Assembly: GCA_964632775.1 (NCBI GenBank)
Contig: CAZWEN010000011.1
Span: 1 to 15,489, forward strand
From: an uncultured Candidatus Saccharibacteria bacterium
Lineage (GTDB): Bacteria; Patescibacteriota; Minisyncoccia; Minisyncoccales; CAZWEN01
Direction: 5' to 3'
Length of the DNA: 15,489 bases
Position numbers and translations under genes: made by a program. Below the pieces are notes generated by a model. That model was not told where the DNA came from. It saw nothing but the letters and a program-made list of their open reading frames with translations, and did no database searches. This document shows, piece by piece, positions 1,365-8,696 of this stretch (positions are counted from its first letter, which is position 1; every line of letters starts with the position of its first letter).

Positions 1365-1392
1365 ATTCTAGAATTAAATAAATATTACGCAA
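1365..1392 (-). promoter_or_regulatory. sigma70-like promoter candidate for the DUF5661-like gene
   Basis: Minus strand reads TTGCGT (1392-1387), a 16-nt spacer, then TAGAAT (1370-1365). The left boundary of the duplication (1371) falls exactly between the two hexamers. Confidence 0.4.
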
Positions 1393-1454
1393 TATTAAAT
1401 GCGACTGAAAGACTTTTTGTTTATTTTTTATTTTCCGGACTTTTAATTTATTGA

Positions 1455-2132
1455 CTAAAAAATTGGTATTTCCAGCATTTGAACACCGGCTGGTAATTCA
1501 AACATACTGTCAGCGATATCACTAAAATCTATATTCTTTAACTCGGCTACTAAAGTGCCTTTGTCGGTAGCCGATTCTATTCTAATAAGTAACCCGTGCT
1601 CTATCCATACCCAGGACTTTGTCTCTTCTGTCTCGGTGGTATATTCGATGACCAGACAGGTCTTTCCATCCAGAATTTCAGTGCCAACAGTCACTGGATT
1701 ATATTTCATAATAGACTCGGATTGTTCTGTCGGAGATTCTCCTGCTGTTTCCTGAGCCTGGCCTAAACTTATTTTCATAGCCGTGTTTTCTGCCGGAAAA
1801 TATATATATGCCAACTGTTCACCCACGTCTACTGAATAGACCATACTCTTCCCTTCAAAAGTCCCTTCCATTCTCATTTTCTCTCCCTTCCGCCACATTG
1901 TTGTTGTAACTGCTGCCTCGCCAGGAGGAGTTACTACCATATCGTACTTTAAAGAGCTAATACCCACTGCCTTTCCCAAAATCGCAGTTAAAGATTCAAC
2001 CTCCTCTTCCTCTTCTTCTTCTTCGCCCAGTGGAACCACGCCTTCTTCTGCTTCTTTCTCTCCGCAGCCAGCGCCAACCAAAACCAAAACAGCTAAAAGT
2101 AAAATTGGAACGAAAACCGCTATTTTGCGCAT
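1455..2132 (-). CDS. secreted lipoprotein, copy A; tentatively LolA-like / lipoprotein-sorting-like fold
   Basis: Signal peptide plus lipobox MRKIAVFVPILLLAVLVLVGAG-C, then a poly-Glu linker (EEEEEEEEV). The C-terminal pattern (ILDGKTCLVIEY...WVWIEHGLLIRIE...FSDIADSMFELP) resembles LolA-like/DUF4367-type beta-sandwich proteins; the fold call is from memory only. G+C is markedly higher than in neighbouring genes. Confidence 0.8.
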   Translation of the reverse strand: MRKIAVFVPILLLAVLVLVGAGCGEKEAEEGVVPLGEEEEEEEEVESLTAILGKAVGISSLKYDMVVTPPGEAAVTTTMWRKGEKMRMEGTFEGKSMVYSVDVGEQLAYIYFPAENTAMKISLGQAQETAGESPTEQSESIMKYNPVTVGTEILDGKTCLVIEYTTETEETKSWVWIEHGLLIRIESATDKGTLVAELKNIDFSDIADSMFELPAGVQMLEIPIF

Positions 2133-2150
2133 ATTTTTATCTTTTAATTT

Positions 2151-2876
2151 TTAATTTTTTCGACCTTTGATTTTTTTAAAAAAATATCGACTTCCTATCG
2201 TTATTATACCAAAGATTATAATCAAAGATAACCACTGAGTCACGGATAAACTAAAATAGTGAGGGTCAGACAAGGGAGTGCCAGTAGAGCGGGTGAAATC
2301 TAAGAAAAATCGAGAAAAAGAATATAAAAACAGAAAAGAAAAAAATAACTGCCCCGGCTTTTTTAGCTTCGGTGTCAAAAACTTTAAAATTAAAAACAGT
2401 ATCAAGGCTGAAATTATTAAATATTCAGCTACCGGATGGCGAATCAGACCATCTGGCCAAATTATTCCCCAGGGTAAGGAGGTTTCTGCCCCCTGATGGT
2501 CATTGATTAAGGAACAGCCAATTCTGCCAATGGCAATGGATATTGGAGCTATAAATGCTGTCAAATCTGCGATTCGCCAAAATAATTTGAAATCAGTTTT
2601 AGTTAACTTAAAATAAAGGATTGCTGCAATTAAAACTCCCAAAAAACCTCCAAGAAAACTTAATCCTCCTTGCCCCAACAACTTTCCCCCAATCATTCCT
2701 CCCAAAAGAATCCAAATGGCCAACTTGTGAATAAAATCTGGTTCAATCCCCAGTTTTTTTGTTTTTTTTAAAACAAAAAGGTAGCCAATTAAAAAAGCTA
2801 GAGCAACAAAAATTCCCCAAGTATAAATAGTAACTGGGCCAATGACAAATTTATCAAAACAAAAATAAGGAATCAT
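2151..2876 (-). CDS. lgt: prolipoprotein diacylglyceryl transferase, copy A
   Basis: 241 aa polytopic membrane protein with Lgt motifs GRIGCSLINDHQG, RHPVAEYL and YSFSRFFLDFTR. Its ATG overlaps the lspA stop (ATGA at 2873-2876). Confidence 0.85.
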   Translation of the reverse strand: MIPYFCFDKFVIGPVTIYTWGIFVALAFLIGYLFVLKKTKKLGIEPDFIHKLAIWILLGGMIGGKLLGQGGLSFLGGFLGVLIAAILYFKLTKTDFKLFWRIADLTAFIAPISIAIGRIGCSLINDHQGAETSLPWGIIWPDGLIRHPVAEYLIISALILFLILKFLTPKLKKPGQLFFSFLFLYSFSRFFLDFTRSTGTPLSDPHYFSLSVTQWLSLIIIFGIITIGSRYFFKKIKGRKN

Positions 2877-3355
2877 TTTTTAAAAAAATTAACCACTAAA
2901 ATTATAATTCCTCCAATAATCATTAGGTCAGCGATATTAAAAATAGAAATGGGAAGAATGAAAATCTTCATCCAATCAATCACGTAGCCGAAAAATATTC
3001 TATCAAAAAAATTGCTCAAGCCACCTAAAATAATTAAAGAAAATCCGGTCGTCAAAAGAAAATCTTTTTTCTGCCAACTCCTGAAAAACAAAAAAAGGAG
3101 CAGCAATAATACTGCCCCGATTAAAAAATAAAGCAAAGTCGAATTAAAGGAAATAAAATATAAATTCGGATTTTTAAATAATTCCAGTTCGATTAAATTC
3201 CCTAAATAGAAATTTGGATGATTTAAAACAAACCATTTACTAAGACGGTCTAAAATTATCAAACTTAAACTGGAAAATATTAAAAACCTTAGACTATGCG
3301 AAGCATTCAAGGTTCTCGCTGAAGGCGGGGTTCTTATTTTGTTTTCCTGTTTCAT
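2873..3355 (-). CDS. lspA: lipoprotein signal peptidase II, copy A
   Basis: 160 aa with LspA motifs DRLSKW, GGLSNFFDRIFFGYVIDW and FNIADLMIIGG (catalytic Asp contexts). Carries an unusual ~24-aa N-terminal tail partly encoded by a dispersed 52-nt element. An in-frame TTG start inside that element is possible. Confidence 0.9.
   Translation of the reverse strand: MKQENKIRTPPSARTLNASHSLRFLIFSSLSLIILDRLSKWFVLNHPNFYLGNLIELELFKNPNLYFISFNSTLLYFLIGAVLLLLLFLFFRSWQKKDFLLTTGFSLIILGGLSNFFDRIFFGYVIDWMKIFILPISIFNIADLMIIGGIIILVVNFFKK
3287..3338 (-). repeat. 52-nt dispersed element, copy in the lspA-A 5' coding region (in frame)
   Basis: Minus-strand reading: aataagaaccccgccttcagcgagaaccttgaatgcttcgcatagtctaagg. 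Encodes IRTPPSARTLNASHSLR. Contains an ATGC-TTC-GCAT hairpin. Homologous to 6915-6968 in the opposite orientation. Confidence 0.75.
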
Positions 3356-3391
3356 TAATTTATATAAGAAATGAGCTCGAAATATTATTTT

Positions 3392-3463
3392 ATCCTACCA
3401 AAAAATCGCCTAACTGACGATTTTTTGCGAGCTCCCCTGGCTGGACGATGTTAGAACCTGTTT
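3392..3463 (-). promoter_or_regulatory. intergenic module: conserved 34-nt box + hairpin/T-run + TGGTAGGAT extended -10 (copy in unit A)
   Basis: Minus strand reads aaacaggttctaacatcgtccagccaggggagc (3463-3431), then the hairpin AAAAAATCGTC-agtta-GGCGATTTTTT (3426-3400), then TGGTAGGAT (-10 at 3397-3392). Nearly the same module occurs at 373-446. Confidence 0.6.
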
Positions 3464-3475
3464 GAGTTCAAAATA

Positions 3476-3513
3476 AAAAGTCCCAAACTTAGATTACTCT
3501 AAGGGGGACTTTT
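3476..3513 (-). terminator. intrinsic terminator of the 62-aa ORF (copy A); the stem contains its stop codon
   Basis: AAAAGTCCC (3476-3484) pairs with GGGACTTTT (3505-3513), and inner CTTAG (3488-3492) pairs with CTAAG (3499-3503). On the minus strand the stem is followed by TTATTTTG. The stop codon at 3499-3501 lies inside the stem. Confidence 0.65.
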
Positions 3514-3687
3514 CTGCCTCCACCTAGCAACTTCTTCTTTATCTAAAAAATGTTTACACTTTGAAGCTAATTCTTCCCAGAGTTTTTCTAATTCATCTAA
3601 ACTTCCAGATCGAGAAAACCTCTTAATCATTTCACCTTGTACGGTTCGGCAAACAATGTAACAGTAACATTGATTACAGCTTCTCAT
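3499..3687 (-). CDS. 62-aa Cys-rich hypothetical protein, copy A
   Basis: MRSCNQCYCYIVC... followed by a helical acidic/basic region. Best Shine-Dalgarno in the window (AAAGGAG, 4 nt before ATG), its own TTGATT-16-TATAAA promoter and its own terminator hairpin. I recognise no family. Confidence 0.6.
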   Translation of the reverse strand: MRSCNQCYCYIVCRTVQGEMIKRFSRSGSLDELEKLWEELASKCKHFLDKEEVARWRQKSPP

Positions 3688-3719
3688 TTTTCTCCTTTCT
3701 TATTAAGAACTAGTTTATA

Positions 3720-3747
3720 TTTATACTCCTTTTTTCAAAAAAATCAA
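3720..3747 (-). promoter_or_regulatory. sigma70-like promoter of the 62-aa ORF (copy A)
   Basis: Minus strand reads TTGATT (3747-3742), a 16-nt spacer, then TATAAA (3725-3720), about 32 nt upstream of the ATG at 3687. Confidence 0.55.
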
Positions 3748-3789
3748 GTCCTCGCCACTACCTCAGTGGCAAAAAATTAAAGGAATAGT

Positions 3790-3820
3790 AAAAAACCGTT
3801 AGTTTCCCTAACGGTTTTTT
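3790..3820. terminator. bidirectional intrinsic terminator hairpin (copy A)
   Basis: AAAAAA-CCGTTAG-tttcc-CTAACGG-TTTTTT: a 7-bp perfect stem flanked by an A-run and a T-run. Lies downstream of lipoprotein copy B on the minus strand. Confidence 0.7.
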
Positions 3821-3954
3821 CTTGTTAATTAAATGTCGCACAGAATGCCCAGTGAGGGGCTTTTGTTTTGGAATTAAACGAACATCACGCAATGTTAAAT
3901 GCGATTGACAGACTTTTTGTTTATTTTTTATTTCCCAGACTTTTAACTTATTGA

Positions 3955-4632
3955 CTAAAAAGTTGGTATTTCCAGCATTTGAACACCAGCTGGTAATTCA
4001 AACATGCTGTCAGGAATAACACTAAAATCTATATTCTTTAACTCGGCTACTAAAATGCCTTCGTCGGTAGTCGATTCTATTCTAATAAGTAATCCGTGCT
4101 CTATCCATACCCAGGACTTTGTCTCTTCTGTCTCGGTGGTGTATTCGATGACCAGACAGGTCTTTCCATCCAGAACTTCAGTGCCAACAGTCACTGGATT
4201 ATATTTCGTAATAGATTCAGATTGTTCTGTCGGAGATTCTCCTGCTGTTTCCTGAGCCTGGCCTAAACTTATTTTCATAGCCGTGTTTTCTGCCGGAAAA
4301 TATATATATGCCAACTGTTCACCCACGTCTACTGAATAGACCATACTCTTCCCTTCAAAAGTCCCTTCCATTCTCATTTTCTCTCCCTTCCGCCACATTG
4401 TTGTTGTAACTGCTGCCTCGCCAGGAGGAGTTACTACCATATCGTACTTTAAAGAGCTAATACCCACTGCCTTTCCCAAAATCGCAGTTAAAGATTCAAC
4501 CTCCTCTTCCTCTTCTTCTTCTTCGCCCAGTGGAACCACGCCTTCTTCTGCTTCTTTCTCTCCGCAGCCAGCGCCAACCAAAACCAAAACAGCTAAAAGT
4601 AAAATTGGAACGAAAACCGCTATTTTGCGCAT
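3955..4632 (-). CDS. secreted lipoprotein, copy B (8 aa substitutions in the last 88 residues vs copy A)
   Basis: Same signal peptide, lipobox and poly-Glu linker as copy A. Differs by M>T, I>V, A>T, K>E, T>I, D>V, A>P and I>T near the C-terminus. Confidence 0.8.
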   Translation of the reverse strand: MRKIAVFVPILLLAVLVLVGAGCGEKEAEEGVVPLGEEEEEEEEVESLTAILGKAVGISSLKYDMVVTPPGEAAVTTTMWRKGEKMRMEGTFEGKSMVYSVDVGEQLAYIYFPAENTAMKISLGQAQETAGESPTEQSESITKYNPVTVGTEVLDGKTCLVIEYTTETEETKSWVWIEHGLLIRIESTTDEGILVAELKNIDFSVIPDSMFELPAGVQMLEIPTF

Positions 4633-4650
4633 ATTTTTATCTTTTAATTT

Positions 4651-5376
4651 TTAATTTTTTCGACCTTTGATTTTTTTAAAAAAATATCGACTTCCTATCG
4701 TTATTATACCAAAGATTATAATCAAAGATAACCACTGAGTCACGGATAAACTAAAATAGTGAGGGTCAGACAAGGGAGTGCCAGTAGAGCGGGTGAAATC
4801 TAAGAAAAATCGAGAAAAAGAATATAAAAACAGAAAAGAAAAAAATAACTGCCCCGGCTTTTTTAGCTTCGGTGTCAAAAACTTTAAAATTAAAAACAGT
4901 ATCAAGGCTGAAATTATTAAATATTCAGCTACCGGATGGCGAATCAGACCATCTGGCCAAATTATTCCCCAGGGTAAGGAGGTTTCTGCCCCCTGATGGT
5001 CATTGATTAAGGAACAGCCAATTCTGCCAATGGCAATGGATATTGGAGCTATAAATGCTGTCAAATCTGCGATTCGCCAAAATAATTTGAAATCAGTTTT
5101 AGTTAACTTAAAATAAAGGATTGCTGCAATTAAAACTCCCAAAAAACCTCCAAGAAAACTTAATCCTCCTTGCCCCAACAACTTTCCCCCAATCATTCCT
5201 CCCAAAAGAATCCAAATGGCCAACTTGTGAATAAAATCTGGTTCAATCCCCAGTTTTTTTGTTTTTTTTAAAACAAAAAGGTAGCCAATTAAAAAAGCTA
5301 GAGCAACAAAAATTCCCCAAGTATAAATAGTAACTGGGCCAATGACAAATTTATCAAAACAAAAATAAGGAATCAT
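4651..5376 (-). CDS. lgt: prolipoprotein diacylglyceryl transferase, copy B
   Basis: Protein identical to copy A, with no nucleotide differences found. Confidence 0.85.
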   Translation of the reverse strand: MIPYFCFDKFVIGPVTIYTWGIFVALAFLIGYLFVLKKTKKLGIEPDFIHKLAIWILLGGMIGGKLLGQGGLSFLGGFLGVLIAAILYFKLTKTDFKLFWRIADLTAFIAPISIAIGRIGCSLINDHQGAETSLPWGIIWPDGLIRHPVAEYLIISALILFLILKFLTPKLKKPGQLFFSFLFLYSFSRFFLDFTRSTGTPLSDPHYFSLSVTQWLSLIIIFGIITIGSRYFFKKIKGRKN

Positions 5377-5855
5377 TTTTTAAAAAAATTAACCACTAAA
5401 ATTATAATTCCTCCAATAATCATTAGGTCAGCGATATTAAAAATAGAAATGGGAAGAATGAAAATCTTCATCCAATCAATCACGTAGCCGAAAAATATTC
5501 TATCAAAAAAATTGCTCAAGCCACCTAAAATAATTAAAGAAAATCCGGTCGTCAAAAGAAAATCTTTTTTCTGCCAACTCCTGAAAAACAAAAAAAGGAG
5601 CAGCAATAATACTGCCCCGATTAAAAAATAAAGCAAAGTCGAATTAAAGGAAATAAAATATAAATTCGGATTTTTAAATAATTCCAGTTCGATTAAATTC
5701 CCTAAATAGAAATTTGGATGATTTAAAACAAACCATTTACTAAGACGGTCTAAAATTATCAAACTTAAACTGGAAAATATTAAAAACCTTAGACTATGCG
5801 AAGCATTCAAGGTTCTCGCTGAAGGCGGGGTTCTTATTTTGTTTTCCTGTTTCAT
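5373..5855 (-). CDS. lspA: lipoprotein signal peptidase II, copy B
   Basis: Protein identical to copy A. ATGA overlap with lgt-B at 5373-5376. Confidence 0.9.
   Translation of the reverse strand: MKQENKIRTPPSARTLNASHSLRFLIFSSLSLIILDRLSKWFVLNHPNFYLGNLIELELFKNPNLYFISFNSTLLYFLIGAVLLLLLFLFFRSWQKKDFLLTTGFSLIILGGLSNFFDRIFFGYVIDWMKIFILPISIFNIADLMIIGGIIILVVNFFKK
5787..5838 (-). repeat. 52-nt dispersed element, copy in the lspA-B 5' coding region
   Basis: Identical to 3287-3338 and part of the duplicated unit. Confidence 0.75.
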
Positions 5856-5891
5856 TAATTTATATAAGAAATGAGCTCGAAATATTATTTT

Positions 5892-5963
5892 ATCCTACCA
5901 AAAAATCGCCTAACTGACGATTTTTTGCGAGCTCCCCTGGCTGGACGATGTTAGAACCTGTTT
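5892..5963 (-). promoter_or_regulatory. intergenic module (box + hairpin/T-run + extended -10), copy in unit B
   Basis: Identical to 3392-3463. Confidence 0.6.
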
Positions 5964-5975
5964 GAGTTCAAAATA

Positions 5976-6013
5976 AAAAGTCCCAAACTTAGATTACTCT
6001 AAGGGGGACTTTT
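5976..6013 (-). terminator. intrinsic terminator of the 62-aa ORF (copy B)
   Basis: Identical to 3476-3513. Confidence 0.65.
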
Positions 6014-6187
6014 CTGCCTCCACCTAGCAACTTCTTCTTTATCTAAAAAATGTTTACACTTTGAAGCTAATTCTTCCCAGAGTTTTTCTAATTCATCTAA
6101 ACTTCCAGATCGAGAAAACCTCTTAATCATTTCACCTTGTACGGTTCGGCAAACAATGTAACAGTAACATTGATTACAGCTTCTCAT
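5999..6187 (-). CDS. 62-aa Cys-rich hypothetical protein, copy B
   Basis: Identical to copy A, including promoter, Shine-Dalgarno and terminator. Confidence 0.6.
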   Translation of the reverse strand: MRSCNQCYCYIVCRTVQGEMIKRFSRSGSLDELEKLWEELASKCKHFLDKEEVARWRQKSPP

Positions 6188-6219
6188 TTTTCTCCTTTCT
6201 TATTAAGAACTAGTTTATA

Positions 6220-6247
6220 TTTATACTCCTTTTTTCAAAAAAATCAA
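6220..6247 (-). promoter_or_regulatory. sigma70-like promoter of the 62-aa ORF (copy B)
   Basis: Identical to 3720-3747. Confidence 0.55.
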
Positions 6248-6289
6248 GTCCTCGCCACTACCTCAGTGGCAAAAAATTAAAGGAATAGT

Positions 6290-6319
6290 AAAAAACCGTT
6301 AGTTTCCCTAACGGTTTTT
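6290..6319. terminator. bidirectional intrinsic terminator hairpin (copy B), downstream of the 150-aa membrane gene
   Basis: Same CCGTTAG/CTAACGG stem as copy A; the T-run is one nt shorter. Confidence 0.7.
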
Positions 6320-6373
6320 CTTGTTAATTAAATGTCGCACAGAATGCCCGGTGATGGGCTTTTGCGGTTTTGA

Positions 6374-6826
6374 TTATTTTTTTTCTGAGATAACCTTTAT
6401 TACTTTAGATAATCTGGTAAAAAGAAAAATAATGGCTACTTCCACGGTGATAAGAGAAACTTCTCTCAGGAGCGCCACGGATATACCTTCTGGAGAGTAG
6501 CTAAAATAGTCCTTGGTTAGAAAATTGATAATATATAAAATAACAGTTAAGCCAATCCAAGAATAAAGGAAGTACTCCCCCTGTCTCTCTATCTTTTTTT
6601 CTCCCAGCCACCTTAACATTTCTTTATGAATAGAATAAACAAATAAAACTGCAACATAAAAGAAACCTATTTTAGAAGGGGGAAAATCTCCCCGACTAAA
6701 AAACTCCATTGTCACCATGAGCATCGCTATTAGGGTAATGGTGGCGCAAATCAAAAATAGGTGTTTATTTATGGTAAATTCTATTTCTCTTACCTTTTTT
6801 AATTTTTCTTCAGGGATTCGTGGCAT
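6374..6826 (-). CDS. integral membrane protein (about 4 TM helices), hypothetical
   Basis: 150 aa with four hydrophobic stretches (LFLICATITLIAMLMVT, IGFFYVAVLFVYSI, FLYSWIGLTVILYIINFL, VSLITVEVAIIFLF). TGGTAAAAT box 6 nt upstream of the ATG and no Shine-Dalgarno. Confidence 0.65.
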   Translation of the reverse strand: MPRIPEEKLKKVREIEFTINKHLFLICATITLIAMLMVTMEFFSRGDFPPSKIGFFYVAVLFVYSIHKEMLRWLGEKKIERQGEYFLYSWIGLTVILYIINFLTKDYFSYSPEGISVALLREVSLITVEVAIIFLFTRLSKVIKVISEKK

Positions 6827-6876: not shown

Positions 6877-6914
6877 ATTGTAGTGTAATAAATAAGCGGT
6901 TAAACCGTCGTAAT

Positions 6915-6968
6915 AATAAGAACCTCTCGCTTCGCTCAAGAACCTTGAATGCTTTGCATAGTCTAAGG
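6915..6968 (+). repeat. 54-nt dispersed element, intergenic copy (inverted relative to the lspA copies)
   Basis: Plus strand reads aataagaacctctcgcttcgctcaagaaccttgaatgctttgcatagtctaagg. The first 10 nt are identical to the minus-strand lspA element, and the last 30 nt match with 1 mismatch, located in the hairpin loop. Confidence 0.75.
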
Positions 6969-6997: not shown

Positions 6998-7030
6998 GCC
7001 TCGAGTTAATCGAGGCTTTTCTTTTATTTT
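6998..7030 (+). terminator. plus-strand-oriented terminator-like hairpin overlapping the uppS stop codon
   Basis: GCCTCGA (6998-7004) pairs with TCGAGGC (7010-7016), followed on the plus strand by TTTTCTTTTATTTT. On the minus strand there is no T-run after the stem. No plus-strand ORF lies upstream. Confidence 0.4.
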
Positions 7031-7704
7031 CCAAATCTTCGCTGGCGCTGGGCATAATCTGCCAGAGCTTGATCTAAATCTGTTTCCGTAAAGGCTGGCC
7101 AGTATTTCTTACAGAAATAAAGTTCAGAATAGGCCGCTTGCCATATTAAAAAATTAGAAATACGTTGTTCCTCACCAGTTCTGATAATTAAATCAAGGTC
7201 AGAGGTCCAGAGATTCTGGGAAATTACATCTTCGGTAATCTTTTCAGGGAGGATTTTCTTTTCAATTATCTTTTTTATTGCTTCGGCAATTTCAGCCCTT
7301 CCCCCGTAACTCAAAGCAAAATTTAAAACCATTCCCTTATTATTTTTGGTTAACTCCTCGGCCTTCCAGATTGTTTCTTGGAGAAATTTTGGCAATCTTT
7401 CTTTTTGACCAATTATCCTTACTTTAATTCCTTCTTTGTGAAGTTCTTTTAGATTATCAGCTATAGCTGATTCAGCCAATTTCATCAAGAAATTTACTTC
7501 TCTCTTTGCTCTCTTCCAATTTTCGGTAGAAAAAACAAACAAAGTTAAAATCTTTACTCCTCGCTCTTTAGACCATTTTATTAACTCTTTTACCTTTGCC
7601 AAACCTTTTCTATGTCCTTCAAAAGCTGGCAATCCTTTTTCTCTGGCCCATCGGCGATTACCATCAATAATGATGCCCAAATGATAAGGAATGTTTTTTA
7701 TCAT
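7024..7704 (-). CDS. uppS: undecaprenyl (polyprenyl) diphosphate synthase, cis-prenyltransferase
   Basis: 226 aa with motifs IIIDGNRRWA, FSTENWKR and RTGEEQRISNFLIWQAAYSELYF. Its ATG overlaps the stop of the upstream reductase gene (ATGA at 7701-7704). Confidence 0.92.
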   Translation of the reverse strand: MIKNIPYHLGIIIDGNRRWAREKGLPAFEGHRKGLAKVKELIKWSKERGVKILTLFVFSTENWKRAKREVNFLMKLAESAIADNLKELHKEGIKVRIIGQKERLPKFLQETIWKAEELTKNNKGMVLNFALSYGGRAEIAEAIKKIIEKKILPEKITEDVISQNLWTSDLDLIIRTGEEQRISNFLIWQAAYSELYFCKKYWPAFTETDLDQALADYAQRQRRFGK

Positions 7705-8696
7705 ATTAAAAAATCACTTTCAATTTTAACATTTTTCGGCAAAATCCAGGGAAAATTAAATCCCAAAAAATAAACTATTTTAGTGGCAATTTTTGAAAAA
7801 ATAATTTTTGGCAAAAAAGTTTTTTTCATCTCTTTTTGATATTTTAAAAAATTTGGGAAATTTTTCAAGAGCGTTTCAGCTGCTATTAATCCCCAGATTA
7901 CCCCTCCCCCACTCCAGGGTTTGGTTAAACCAGCTGCATCACCACAGAGAGTTATCAAAGAATGTTTAGGAATTAAAAACCCTTGAGGGACTATTCCTGG
8001 CTCTAATTTATTTAGTCGAAGACTGTTTTTCCTTAAAAAATTTTCAAAAAGTGCTTTGGCTTCTTTGGGACTAGAAATTATTCCGTATTCTATTTCTTTG
8101 CCCCTAGGAATTTTCCAGATGAAGCCCTGTTTTTGAGGCCAGGTTTCAACAAAATTTGAAGAGTCGCTTTTTGAAATAAATCCCTGGATGGCTAACAGAT
8201 ATTTTGGTTCTGATAATCCTAAACTTTTTCTAACCACAGAATTTGGCCCGTCACAGCCAATAATTCTGTCAAATTTTTTTTGAAATGTAGCGAGGTCTTG
8301 CTTCGTTACGTTATGATTTAAAATAATTTTTACACCGGAATTCTCAGCCAATTCGGCTACCAGATTATCAAGTTCAAAATGGCTCATTACTAAAAGTTTT
8401 TTGGAAAATCTAACCTTTATTGTTTTTTTAGGGAGTCGAAGAACATTTGTTCTTCTCCACCCTTCGCTACACTCGGGTAAATGAATTAAAGCTGACTCTA
8501 TTTGATTTTGAATTAATTTTTGACTTTGGGGAATAAATTCTAAAATTCTTTCGGAAAAAAGTCCAGAACAGGCTTTTTTTCCGATTTTTTCTTTTTTTTC
8601 AAATACAGTTACTTGATGCCCTTTTTCAGCTAATTTCCAAGCTAAATAAAGTCCAGTTATCCCCGCTCCAACAATGGCCACTTTTTGAGATTTCAT
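7701..8696 (-). CDS. FAD-dependent oxidoreductase, geranylgeranyl reductase (GGR/ChlP/MenJ-like) family
   Basis: 331 aa. N-terminal Rossmann motif [41 protein letters not shown], and GDAAGLTKPWSGGGV, typical of the GGR family. Confidence 0.75.
   Translation of the reverse strand: MKSQKVAIVGAGITGLYLAWKLAEKGHQVTVFEKKEKIGKKACSGLFSERILEFIPQSQKLIQNQIESALIHLPECSEGWRRTNVLRLPKKTIKVRFSKKLLVMSHFELDNLVAELAENSGVKIILNHNVTKQDLATFQKKFDRIIGCDGPNSVVRKSLGLSEPKYLLAIQGFISKSDSSNFVETWPQKQGFIWKIPRGKEIEYGIISSPKEAKALFENFLRKNSLRLNKLEPGIVPQGFLIPKHSLITLCGDAAGLTKPWSGGGVIWGLIAAETLLKNFPNFLKYQKEMKKTFLPKIIFSKIATKIVYFLGFNFPWILPKNVKIESDFLI

Follow-up and report, generated by a model that had tools for sequence, protein, structure and literature searches.

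An apparent recombination mosaic in a repeated lspA-lgt-lipoprotein unit of a Patescibacteria-like genome

Introduction

When two neighbouring copies of a gene cluster are identical along most of their length and diverged at one edge, two kinds of history come to mind. Either the core has been kept uniform while the edge drifted, or the edge was already different and was brought in from elsewhere. The question is raised here by a window of 15,489 nt, the whole of contig C11 of a MAG (546 kb, 64 contigs, 90.5% complete) whose gene content and protein relatives point to a Patescibacteria-like organism. The window holds a 2.5-kb unit twice, and the original prediction, made from its letters, had offered both histories: an older duplication whose core is homogenised by gene conversion, or recombination with a diverged allele. 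A third account, in which the assembler itself is responsible for the second copy, also has to be weighed.

The repeated unit and its genes

The unit consists of orf62, lspA, lgt and the gene for a lipoprotein with a predicted LolA fold, and all of its genes lie on the minus strand. The window's copies of lgt and lspA are the sole ones in the MAG. The former matches the Pfam family LGT (PF01790) at 129.7 bits, above its gathering cut-off of 24.9, and the latter Peptidase_A8 (PF01252) at 72.1 bits, above a cut-off of 25; the two genes overlap in an ATGA. The product of orf62 (62 aa) has no family match, and Rfam and tRNA scans of the window returned nothing relevant.

From left to right, the left flank (54-1370) carries small membrane ORFs, a 60-aa zinc-ribbon-like ORF (867-1049) and a DUF5661 gene (1054-1362; Pfam DUF5661, 91 bits), again on the minus strand. 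Next comes the edge of copy 1 (1371-1719), which we call A-type and which comprises the last 88 codons of lipoprotein A (1455-1719) and an 84-nt 3' tail (1371-1454). The copy-1 core (1720-3819) contains the 5' part of the lipoprotein gene (to 2132), lgt (2151-2876), lspA (2873-3355), orf62 (3499-3687) and promoter and terminator modules. The inter-copy junction J1 (3820-3870) is made up of the extra T of a T-run, a 30-nt segment (3821-3850) in common with the right junction and a terminator-like hairpin at about 3847-3860. It is followed by the B-type edge of copy 2 (3871-4219), that is, the last 88 codons of lipoprotein B (3955-4219) and the 3' tail. The copy-2 core (4220-6319) has the same content (lipoprotein 5' part to 4632, lgt 4651-5376, lspA 5373-5855, orf62 5999-6187). 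The right junction J2 (6320-6372), with the module of J1 and a terminator-like hairpin of the orf150-tail type, lies between the unit and orf150 (6374-6826).

The lipoprotein has 225 aa, with a signal peptide, a lipobox cysteine, an acidic linker and a DUF4412/LolA_like domain. Its match to DUF4412 (24.9 bits) passes the cut-off of 21.6, and that to LolA_like (26.7 bits) falls below the cut-off of 30. A search of the PDB by sequence gave no match for this protein. An AlphaFold model built with 20 homologues (pLDDT 78.8, pTM 0.71) takes the form of an open beta-barrel that bears lid helices. Foldseek ranks LolA proteins first among its PDB matches (E ~1e-8, target-normalised TM up to 0.73). In the model, the eight residues that vary between the two copies lie in the last helix, in four strands and in loops, and they form no cluster.

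Divergence between the two copies

We compared the copies ungapped at an offset of 2500. Positions 1720-3819 equal 4220-6319 without a single difference in 2100 nt, 5 nt more than the identical core of 2095 nt (1720-3814 and 4220-6314) that had been described from the sequence. Over the 349 positions of 1371-1719 and 3871-4219, by contrast, there are 25 differences, so that an identical stretch (0/2100) is bounded by diverged paralogous sequence (25/349). Had differences been spread evenly, the probability that all 25 would fall inside 349 of the 2449 aligned nt is about 7e-22; put the other way, a core that differed at the rate of the edge would show about 150 differences, and it shows none.

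The composition of the edge differences agrees in every count with the original prediction. Twenty-two are transitions and three are transversions (at 1409, 1514 and 1519); ten fall in the non-coding tail of 84 nt, and the 15 within codons cause eight amino-acid changes (from copy 1 to copy 2: M142T, I153V, A188T, K191E, T193I, D205V, A207P and I224T). At the right-hand unit ends, the two substitutions (3851 A/G, 3856 G/T), the 1-nt difference in the T-run (6 T at 3815-3820 against 5 T at 6315-6319) and the 3-nt indel (GCG at 6364-6366) were likewise recovered.

An excess of transitions can be a sign of editing or hypermutation. Here, every type of transition is represented (7 T>C, 6 A>G, 4 C>T and 5 G>A), so there is no deamination-type bias, and more diverged pairs of orthologues have transition to transversion ratios of 3-4:1. 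On these two grounds, editing or hypermutation is ruled out as the cause. Selection on the edge is also of an ordinary kind. Between the coding parts of edges A and B, dS is 0.13 and dN 0.040, and the resulting dN/dS of 0.30 sits within the range of orthologue pairs of the lipoprotein gene (0.17-0.37). The edge is under purifying selection, and this orthologue-like ratio rules out positive or relaxed selection there.

Polarising the 15 coding differences with 30 homologues places about eight derived changes on the A-type lineage and about five on the B-type lineage, and in the non-coding tail derived states occur on both edges too. The claim that the edge divergence is genuine and not noise is borne out by these derived states on both sides, by the orthologue-like dN/dS and by the occurrence of both edge types in independent assemblies. 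Moreover, the 5' part of the lipoprotein gene in the window core is separated from L019, a contig with the A-type edge from another assembly, by a dS of 0.15, matching the 0.13 between the two edges. The A and B genes are thus evenly diverged along their length, with the copy-1 gene a splice of both. We prefer to read the edge difference as allelic divergence that separates lineages, and not as drift after the duplication.

A-type sequence in other samples

The copy-1 edge and the left flank recur at 99.4-99.7% identity in four other assemblies, represented by L019 (a contig of GCA_964598345.1), L046 (a JGI contig), L049 (Logan SRR9700624) and L050 (JGI 3300031643). L019 agrees with copy 1 at 24 of the 25 diagnostic sites and differs from it at 5 of about 1690 nt over 54-1744, two of them within the 349 nt of the edge. 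Its lipoprotein gene is followed by the DUF5661, zinc-ribbon and membrane ORFs in the same way as in the window. L046 overlaps L019 by 521 identical nt and extends further, and the left flank differs from the composite of the two at 3 of 1317 nt. Against L049 and L050, the left flank and A edge show 99.4-99.5% identity. The proteins give the same picture: among the five members of the 90% cluster of the lipoprotein, P0005 (encoded on L019) has all eight A-type residues, and exact copies of the DUF5661 and 60-aa zinc-ribbon-like proteins were found only in the samples with L019, L049 and L050.

The sequence past the edge is reached by L019 and L046 only, and there the resemblance ends. To the right of 1720-1744, these contigs are 7-24% diverged from the window core. 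Stepwise, the composite of L046 and L019 differs from copy 1 by 0.2% in the left flank, 0.6% in the edge and 0 of 25 nt in 1720-1744, and then by 7.0% in the 5' part of the mature lipoprotein, 23.6% in the signal peptide and spacer and 16.9% in lgt. The step from 0.6% to 7.0% is abrupt, being taken across 25 nt. The lgt of L046 has a 7-nt deletion, with a dS of 0.61 and a dN/dS of 0.15 against the window's lgt; the truncated protein has an exact match on L046 alone.

These comparisons also give the breakpoint its limits. The last site at which copy 1 agrees with L019 and not with copy 2 is 1719, and the first at which copy 1 agrees with copy 2 and not with L019 is 1745. The crossover in copy 1 is confined to the intervening 25 nt (1720-1744), which are identical in the A-type sequence of L019, copy 1 and copy 2 and begin at the core/edge boundary that had been noticed from the sequence. 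In the A-block samples, whose contigs are short and of low coverage, no exact core-type Lgt, LspA, lipoprotein B or UppS is on record. The exact chimeric lipoprotein A of copy 1 is on record from the window's own contig only, and among the other assemblies none has the join of A edge and core, or both copies together.

B-type sequence in other samples

Six contigs, drawn from four other samples, match the core, B edge, J1 and right flank at 100%. L017 (JGI 3300031351) runs from window position 7606 to 3828 and has the copy-2 core contiguous with the right flank; L018 (Logan SRR8556706) runs from 6265 to 3821. The other four are L051 and L052 (SRR8556701), L053 (JGI 3300031280) and L054 (SRR8556706). 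As in the window, L017 (to 3828) and L018 (to 3821) carry J1-specific bases together with the copy-2 edge. Lipoprotein B, Lgt, LspA and orf150 also lie on a contig of 27,147 nt that has no lipoprotein A and no DUF5661. Each block thus has a near-identical counterpart in a separate population (99.4-99.7% for A, 100% for B).

In both L017 and L018, the path from core to B edge to J1 is unbroken at the point where a branch to the A edge would fork. Logan contig ends are otherwise accounted for by known 30-32 nt repeats. Neither the left-flank proteins nor the copy-1 edge were found in the B-block samples, and among the other assemblies the two edges never occur in one sample. With no fork, and with no left-flank genes found in SRR8556706 and JGI 3300031351, the strain present there lacks the window's copy-1 edge and differs in structure from the window.

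This distribution bears directly on a rival explanation, in which the assembly made a loop through two co-occurring strains and the tandem duplication exists in no single genome. One of them would carry a recombinant allele in a single copy (left flank, A edge, core, J2, right flank), and the other would run from the core through the B edge to J1 and on into another copy of the intergenic modules; the two edges would then be strain alleles. In favour of this, the A and B blocks keep apart in the other visible assemblies, and L017 and L018 pass from core to B edge unforked. Much of what remains for and against the loop concerns the assembly graph, to which we return after the relatives.

Related loci and gene conversion

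In the relatives of the lineage at about 77% lipoprotein identity (L024, L025, L026 and L029), the locus is single-copy, with the gene order rplI, pyrG, flavoprotein, uppS, orf150, lspA, lgt, lipoprotein. Closer lineages are rearranged. For example, L028 has orf150 and then the lipoprotein gene directly, and in L022 and L057 lspA-lgt is followed by a MamF/MmsF-family gene. P0014, the Lgt at 83%, proved to lie in a different arrangement (lspA-lgt-MamF). The B edge is nearest to L020 (9 of 264 nt) and farther from the A edge (15 of 264 nt). Maximum-likelihood trees of the 264-nt edge and of a 273-nt 5' part are star-like, with five lineages at 6-8% divergence. When the A and B edges are forced together in the tree of the 264-nt edge, the AU test (p 0.20) speaks neither for nor against the two being sisters.

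It is against this background that the first option of the original prediction can be judged. An older tandem pair would have been homogenised within one genome, with copy 2 overwriting copy 1 by gene conversion from 1720-1744 rightwards to the junction and sparing only the outer edge of copy 1. Several features fit: diverged sequence borders the identical tract on either side, the switch falls in a 25-nt identical run, as RecA-type exchange needs, and the A-edge population does have a diverged lspA-lgt-lipoprotein unit at the position of copy 1, where a 7-nt deletion in lgt would be tolerable given a second intact copy. However, the dS of 0.61 in the lgt of that diverged unit is four times the dS of the lipoprotein gene (0.13-0.15), which does not make a simple old duplicate pair. 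Furthermore, the right side offers only about 50 nt of homology (J1 against J2) in which to resolve the tract, and an unconverted two-copy state was not found in L024, L025, L026 and L029. We do not favour this option, given that the relatives at about 77% are single-copy, that the A-edge samples have no core-type unit on record and that L020, not the A edge, lies nearest to the B edge; overall, we consider it improbable. The second option, recombination with a diverged allele, stands and fits best, with the copy-1 edge contiguous with a recurrent left flank and a step to 7-24% divergence beyond 1720-1744.

The assembly graph and the number of copies

The contig ends of the MAG include eight pairs whose overlap is exactly 55 nt, as left behind by a SPAdes-type graph with a final k of 55. 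We are thus dealing with a de Bruijn short-read assembly and a perfect repeat (2100 nt) longer than both k and the reads. In a graph of this kind, the identical core is a single edge that is walked twice. Because the core is printed twice and isolated SNPs between copies are collapsed as bubbles, the count of 0/2100 is no independent evidence of identity or of copy number. The copy number of the 2.1-kb repeat rests on the assembler's resolution of a loop, and a short-read assembly alone cannot prove that both copies lie in one genome.

At this locus the graph is a simple loop: the left flank and A edge lead into the core, and from the core the path goes either to J2 and the right flank or through J1 and the B edge back to the core. 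The two links that matter both need real reads behind them. Around the breakpoint, the A-type sequence and the core have no common run of 31 nt or more, and only 25 nt are identical at the breakpoint itself; at k=55, the join of A edge and core therefore needs real bridging reads, and a chimeric k-mer join of two populations is unlikely. On the other side, a single 55-mer covers both the 6-T run of J1 and position 3768, whose core-type base tells the core apart from the similar element on contig C39; reads therefore also bridged lipoprotein B, J1 and the sequence upstream of orf62.

The explanation by a loop through two strains draws on the same properties of the graph. The eight 55-nt overlaps point to a SPAdes-type assembly at k=55, the longest identical run between the two edges is 47 nt (35 nt between J1 and J2), so no run of 55 nt or more is common to the edges, and a core of 2100 nt is beyond the span of short reads. 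The unit is also the only repeat longer than 300 nt that was resolved in the 546-kb MAG. Moreover, the J-left and hairpin modules are dispersed (C45, C39 and L027), and a second unit after J1 is not required. Against this, no contig end of the MAG overlaps or attaches to the duplicated region, and no alternative exit from J1 or from the core is visible. At k=55, at least about 55 nt after J1 must equal the right end of the core, including base 3768. Only the A and B edges leave the core, which makes a tandem array with the A edge at its end the sole closed path. Even two strains would still require a real recombinant join between A edge and core. Taken together, we regard the loop as a serious contender, if one that is more probably false than true.

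Both copies in one genome remains the reading that we favour, on the basis that the graph shows only two exits from the core, with J1 returning to core-type sequence.

Junctions and intergenic elements

The junctions are built from elements that occur elsewhere. In the relatives, the terminator-like hairpin stands after both orf150 and the lipoprotein gene. The dispersed module, a conserved box with a hairpin of 10-bp stem, is also present on C45 and in L027. J1 consists of the lipoprotein-tail version of the hairpin and then the module, J2 of the orf150-tail version and then the same module. These different hairpin origins, together with homopolymer slippage, explain most of the small differences at the right-hand ends of the units, which are thus no sign of drift like that considered for the edge. 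A junction placed at a terminator-like hairpin and a dispersed module, found after both orf150 and the lipoprotein gene, points to recombination or slippage between short repeats.

Two other ideas about the junction were considered and not adopted. The start of C39 carries a 42-nt copy of the promoter module with one mismatch and might be what really adjoins J1; the k=55 graph lends this no support. The agent might also have been a site-specific recombinase: an integrase-family fragment adjoins the module in L027, and nothing like it stands out in the ORF lists for the module copies on C45 or the start of C39.

A proposed history of the locus

The robust part of our explanation is that the diverged edge represents a pre-existing allele lineage, attached by a homologous crossover at 1720-1744. 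The mosaic, its breakpoint interval and the independent occurrence of both blocks can all be read from the alignments; what we infer is that one genome physically holds both copies, in what order the events came and how the junction arose.

The full history that we favour is a recombinant strain with both copies in one genome, produced by a young tandem duplication and by homologous recombination between lineages with its crossover at 1720-1744. We hold it tentatively, at a little short of an even chance. In this history, the 2.5-kb unit (orf62, lspA, lgt and the LolA-fold lipoprotein gene) would have been duplicated in tandem recently, by unequal recombination or slippage between short repeats at the junction. 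The A-type 3' end and the left flank would form one haplotype block that circulates in other populations, and the core, B-type edge, junction and right flank a second block present in yet other populations. A homologous-recombination crossover in the 25-nt identical stretch would have joined them, and the copy-1 lipoprotein would be a chimera of B-type residues 1-137 and A-type residues 138-225. The 7% divergence of the edge would then be older than the duplication and would have been brought in by recombination between lineages, as opposed to having escaped homogenisation after the duplication.

What would this mean for the organism? It is possible, though rather doubtful, that both copies lie in one 0.55-Mb genome and that a very recent doubling of the entire lipoprotein-maturation operon, with recombination between lineages, brought two circulating variants of a polymorphic LolA-fold surface lipoprotein to fixation next to each other. 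If so, this would be a way for a haploid to keep two alleles, with an lspA-lgt set for each. Provided that both copies are real, a small, symbiont-type genome would have a fresh duplication of its only lgt and lspA, along with two alleles of a conserved LolA-fold lipoprotein. Related populations also show rearrangement and recombination at this locus, which suggests that it is a variable envelope locus of Patescibacteria. There is also a lesson for reading short-read MAGs: an identical core with a diverged edge is not readable as concerted evolution. Such a reading is unsafe because the assembler prints a repeat edge twice and the flanking edges may be strain alleles.

Comparison with known systems

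LolA and LolB form a superfamily (DUF4412/LolA_like) whose features are echoed by the window's lipoprotein in its predicted open barrel with lid helices, in a lipobox cysteine after the signal peptide and in having LolA proteins as top PDB matches. Sequence identity to LolA is only 9-17%, however, and the window protein is itself predicted to be lipid-anchored.

The pattern as a whole can be set beside three known phenomena. Perfectly identical tracts in duplicated genes are familiar from concerted evolution by gene conversion, such as that of tufA/tufB in Salmonella and of rRNA operons. The window is alike in its two copies, its identical tract and its diverged margins, but differs in that the margin has an external, near-identical source haplotype, the relatives are single-copy and no unconverted two-copy state was found. 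False duplications and loop traversals, in turn, occur in SPAdes-type short-read assemblies of mixed strains. The window was likewise built on a k=55 graph, its repeat exceeds the read length, its core is perfect and its edges are distributed among samples in the manner of strain alleles; it differs in that J1 and the A edge-core join each need real bridging k-mers, and in that the bin offers no alternative exit.

Mosaic alleles made by homologous recombination between lineages are well known from the pneumococcal pbp genes and from the porin and surface-protein mosaics of Neisseria. The window resembles these in its switch of ancestry within a gene, in the near-identical counterpart of each block, in the short identical run at the crossover and in ordinary purifying selection. 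It differs in that the mosaic lies in one copy of a tandem duplication, and the same genome would keep a B-type gene and a B/A chimera. As judged from sequence comparison, this variable envelope locus of a Patescibacteria-like genome shows an ordinary recombination mosaic, which the assembly may have exaggerated.

Dispersed modules and other repeats

Both unit junctions, the one between the two copies (3820-3870) and the one between the unit and orf150 (6320-6372), have as their left part a dispersed intergenic module in which a conserved box is followed by a bidirectional terminator-like hairpin with a 10-bp stem. Copies lie at 3821-3845 plus 3790-3820 and at 6320-6344 plus 6291-6319 in the window, at 827-880 of C45 (C-numbers being contigs of the same MAG) and at 1715-1802 of L027 (L-numbers being contigs from other assemblies). 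The module sits behind different genes, both in the MAG genome and in a related lineage. A second module, consisting of a hairpin and a TTGATT -35-like box, lies upstream of orf62 (3736-3777 and 6236-6277) and recurs at C45:2889-2931 and, with one mismatch, at the very start of C39 (1-42). In some strains, the inter-copy junction could have C39 as an alternative neighbour.

Other repeats are also found within and around the unit. An element of 30-57 nt lies in frame within the lspA N-terminus (3287-3344 and 5787-5844), is inverted between uppS and orf150 (6912-6968), where k=31 Logan contigs break off at 6922 because of it, and is present on four other contigs (C6:4225-4279, C16:9231-9275, C21 and C47). 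Additionally, a promoter/terminator-like composite of 34 nt and 43 nt is repeated upstream of several minus-strand genes (109-142, 371-446, 815-857, 3390-3463 and 5890-5963) and is shared with L021, L027 and L028.

Regarding the assembly itself, eight contig-end pairs overlap by exactly 55 nt, which shows that the MAG was assembled on a SPAdes-type de Bruijn graph with k=55. These pairs (C9/C13, C15/C47, C21/C37, C23/C43, C29/C53, C40/C60, C44/C5 and C49/C38) are neighbours in the graph, and it would be possible to join them.

The locus in related lineages

Gene order at the locus varies between close lineages (L028, L022, L057, L024-L026 and L029): we find a single-copy orf150-lspA-lgt-lipoprotein arrangement, orf150-lipoprotein without the enzymes, and lspA-lgt-MamF/MmsF. 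L026 carries an orf62-like stretch about 1.5 kb downstream of its lipoprotein gene, and C2:24903-25502 in the window's own MAG is homologous to the gene that adjoins the lipoprotein gene in those relatives. In one related lineage (L027:1367-2007), a MazG-family gene comes after the lipoprotein gene; next are the dispersed module and, in convergent orientation, a tyrosine-recombinase fragment (Phage_integrase, 52.9 bits). L042, from another lineage, holds two lipoprotein homologues (180-272 and 1494-2168) about 1.2 kb apart, with a 356-aa membrane-anchored protein between them; here the lipoprotein gene seems to have been duplicated independently.

In the population with the A-type lipoprotein 3' edge, L046 (JGI Ga0315547_1072457), which overlaps L019, carries an lgt copy (28-760) with a 7-nt deletion truncating it at residue 151 and a 1-nt deletion as a second lesion. 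Despite these deletions, dN/dS against the window lgt is 0.15; the copy is a pseudogene of very recent origin, or else the contig contains an error. If the truncation is real, that genome needs another lgt.

Beyond the unit, uppS and the flavoprotein gene (7024-8696) overlap by ATGA, as originally noted. The flavoprotein gene matches FAD/NAD(P)-binding domains only, and the pair is kept in the lineage at about 77% lipoprotein identity.
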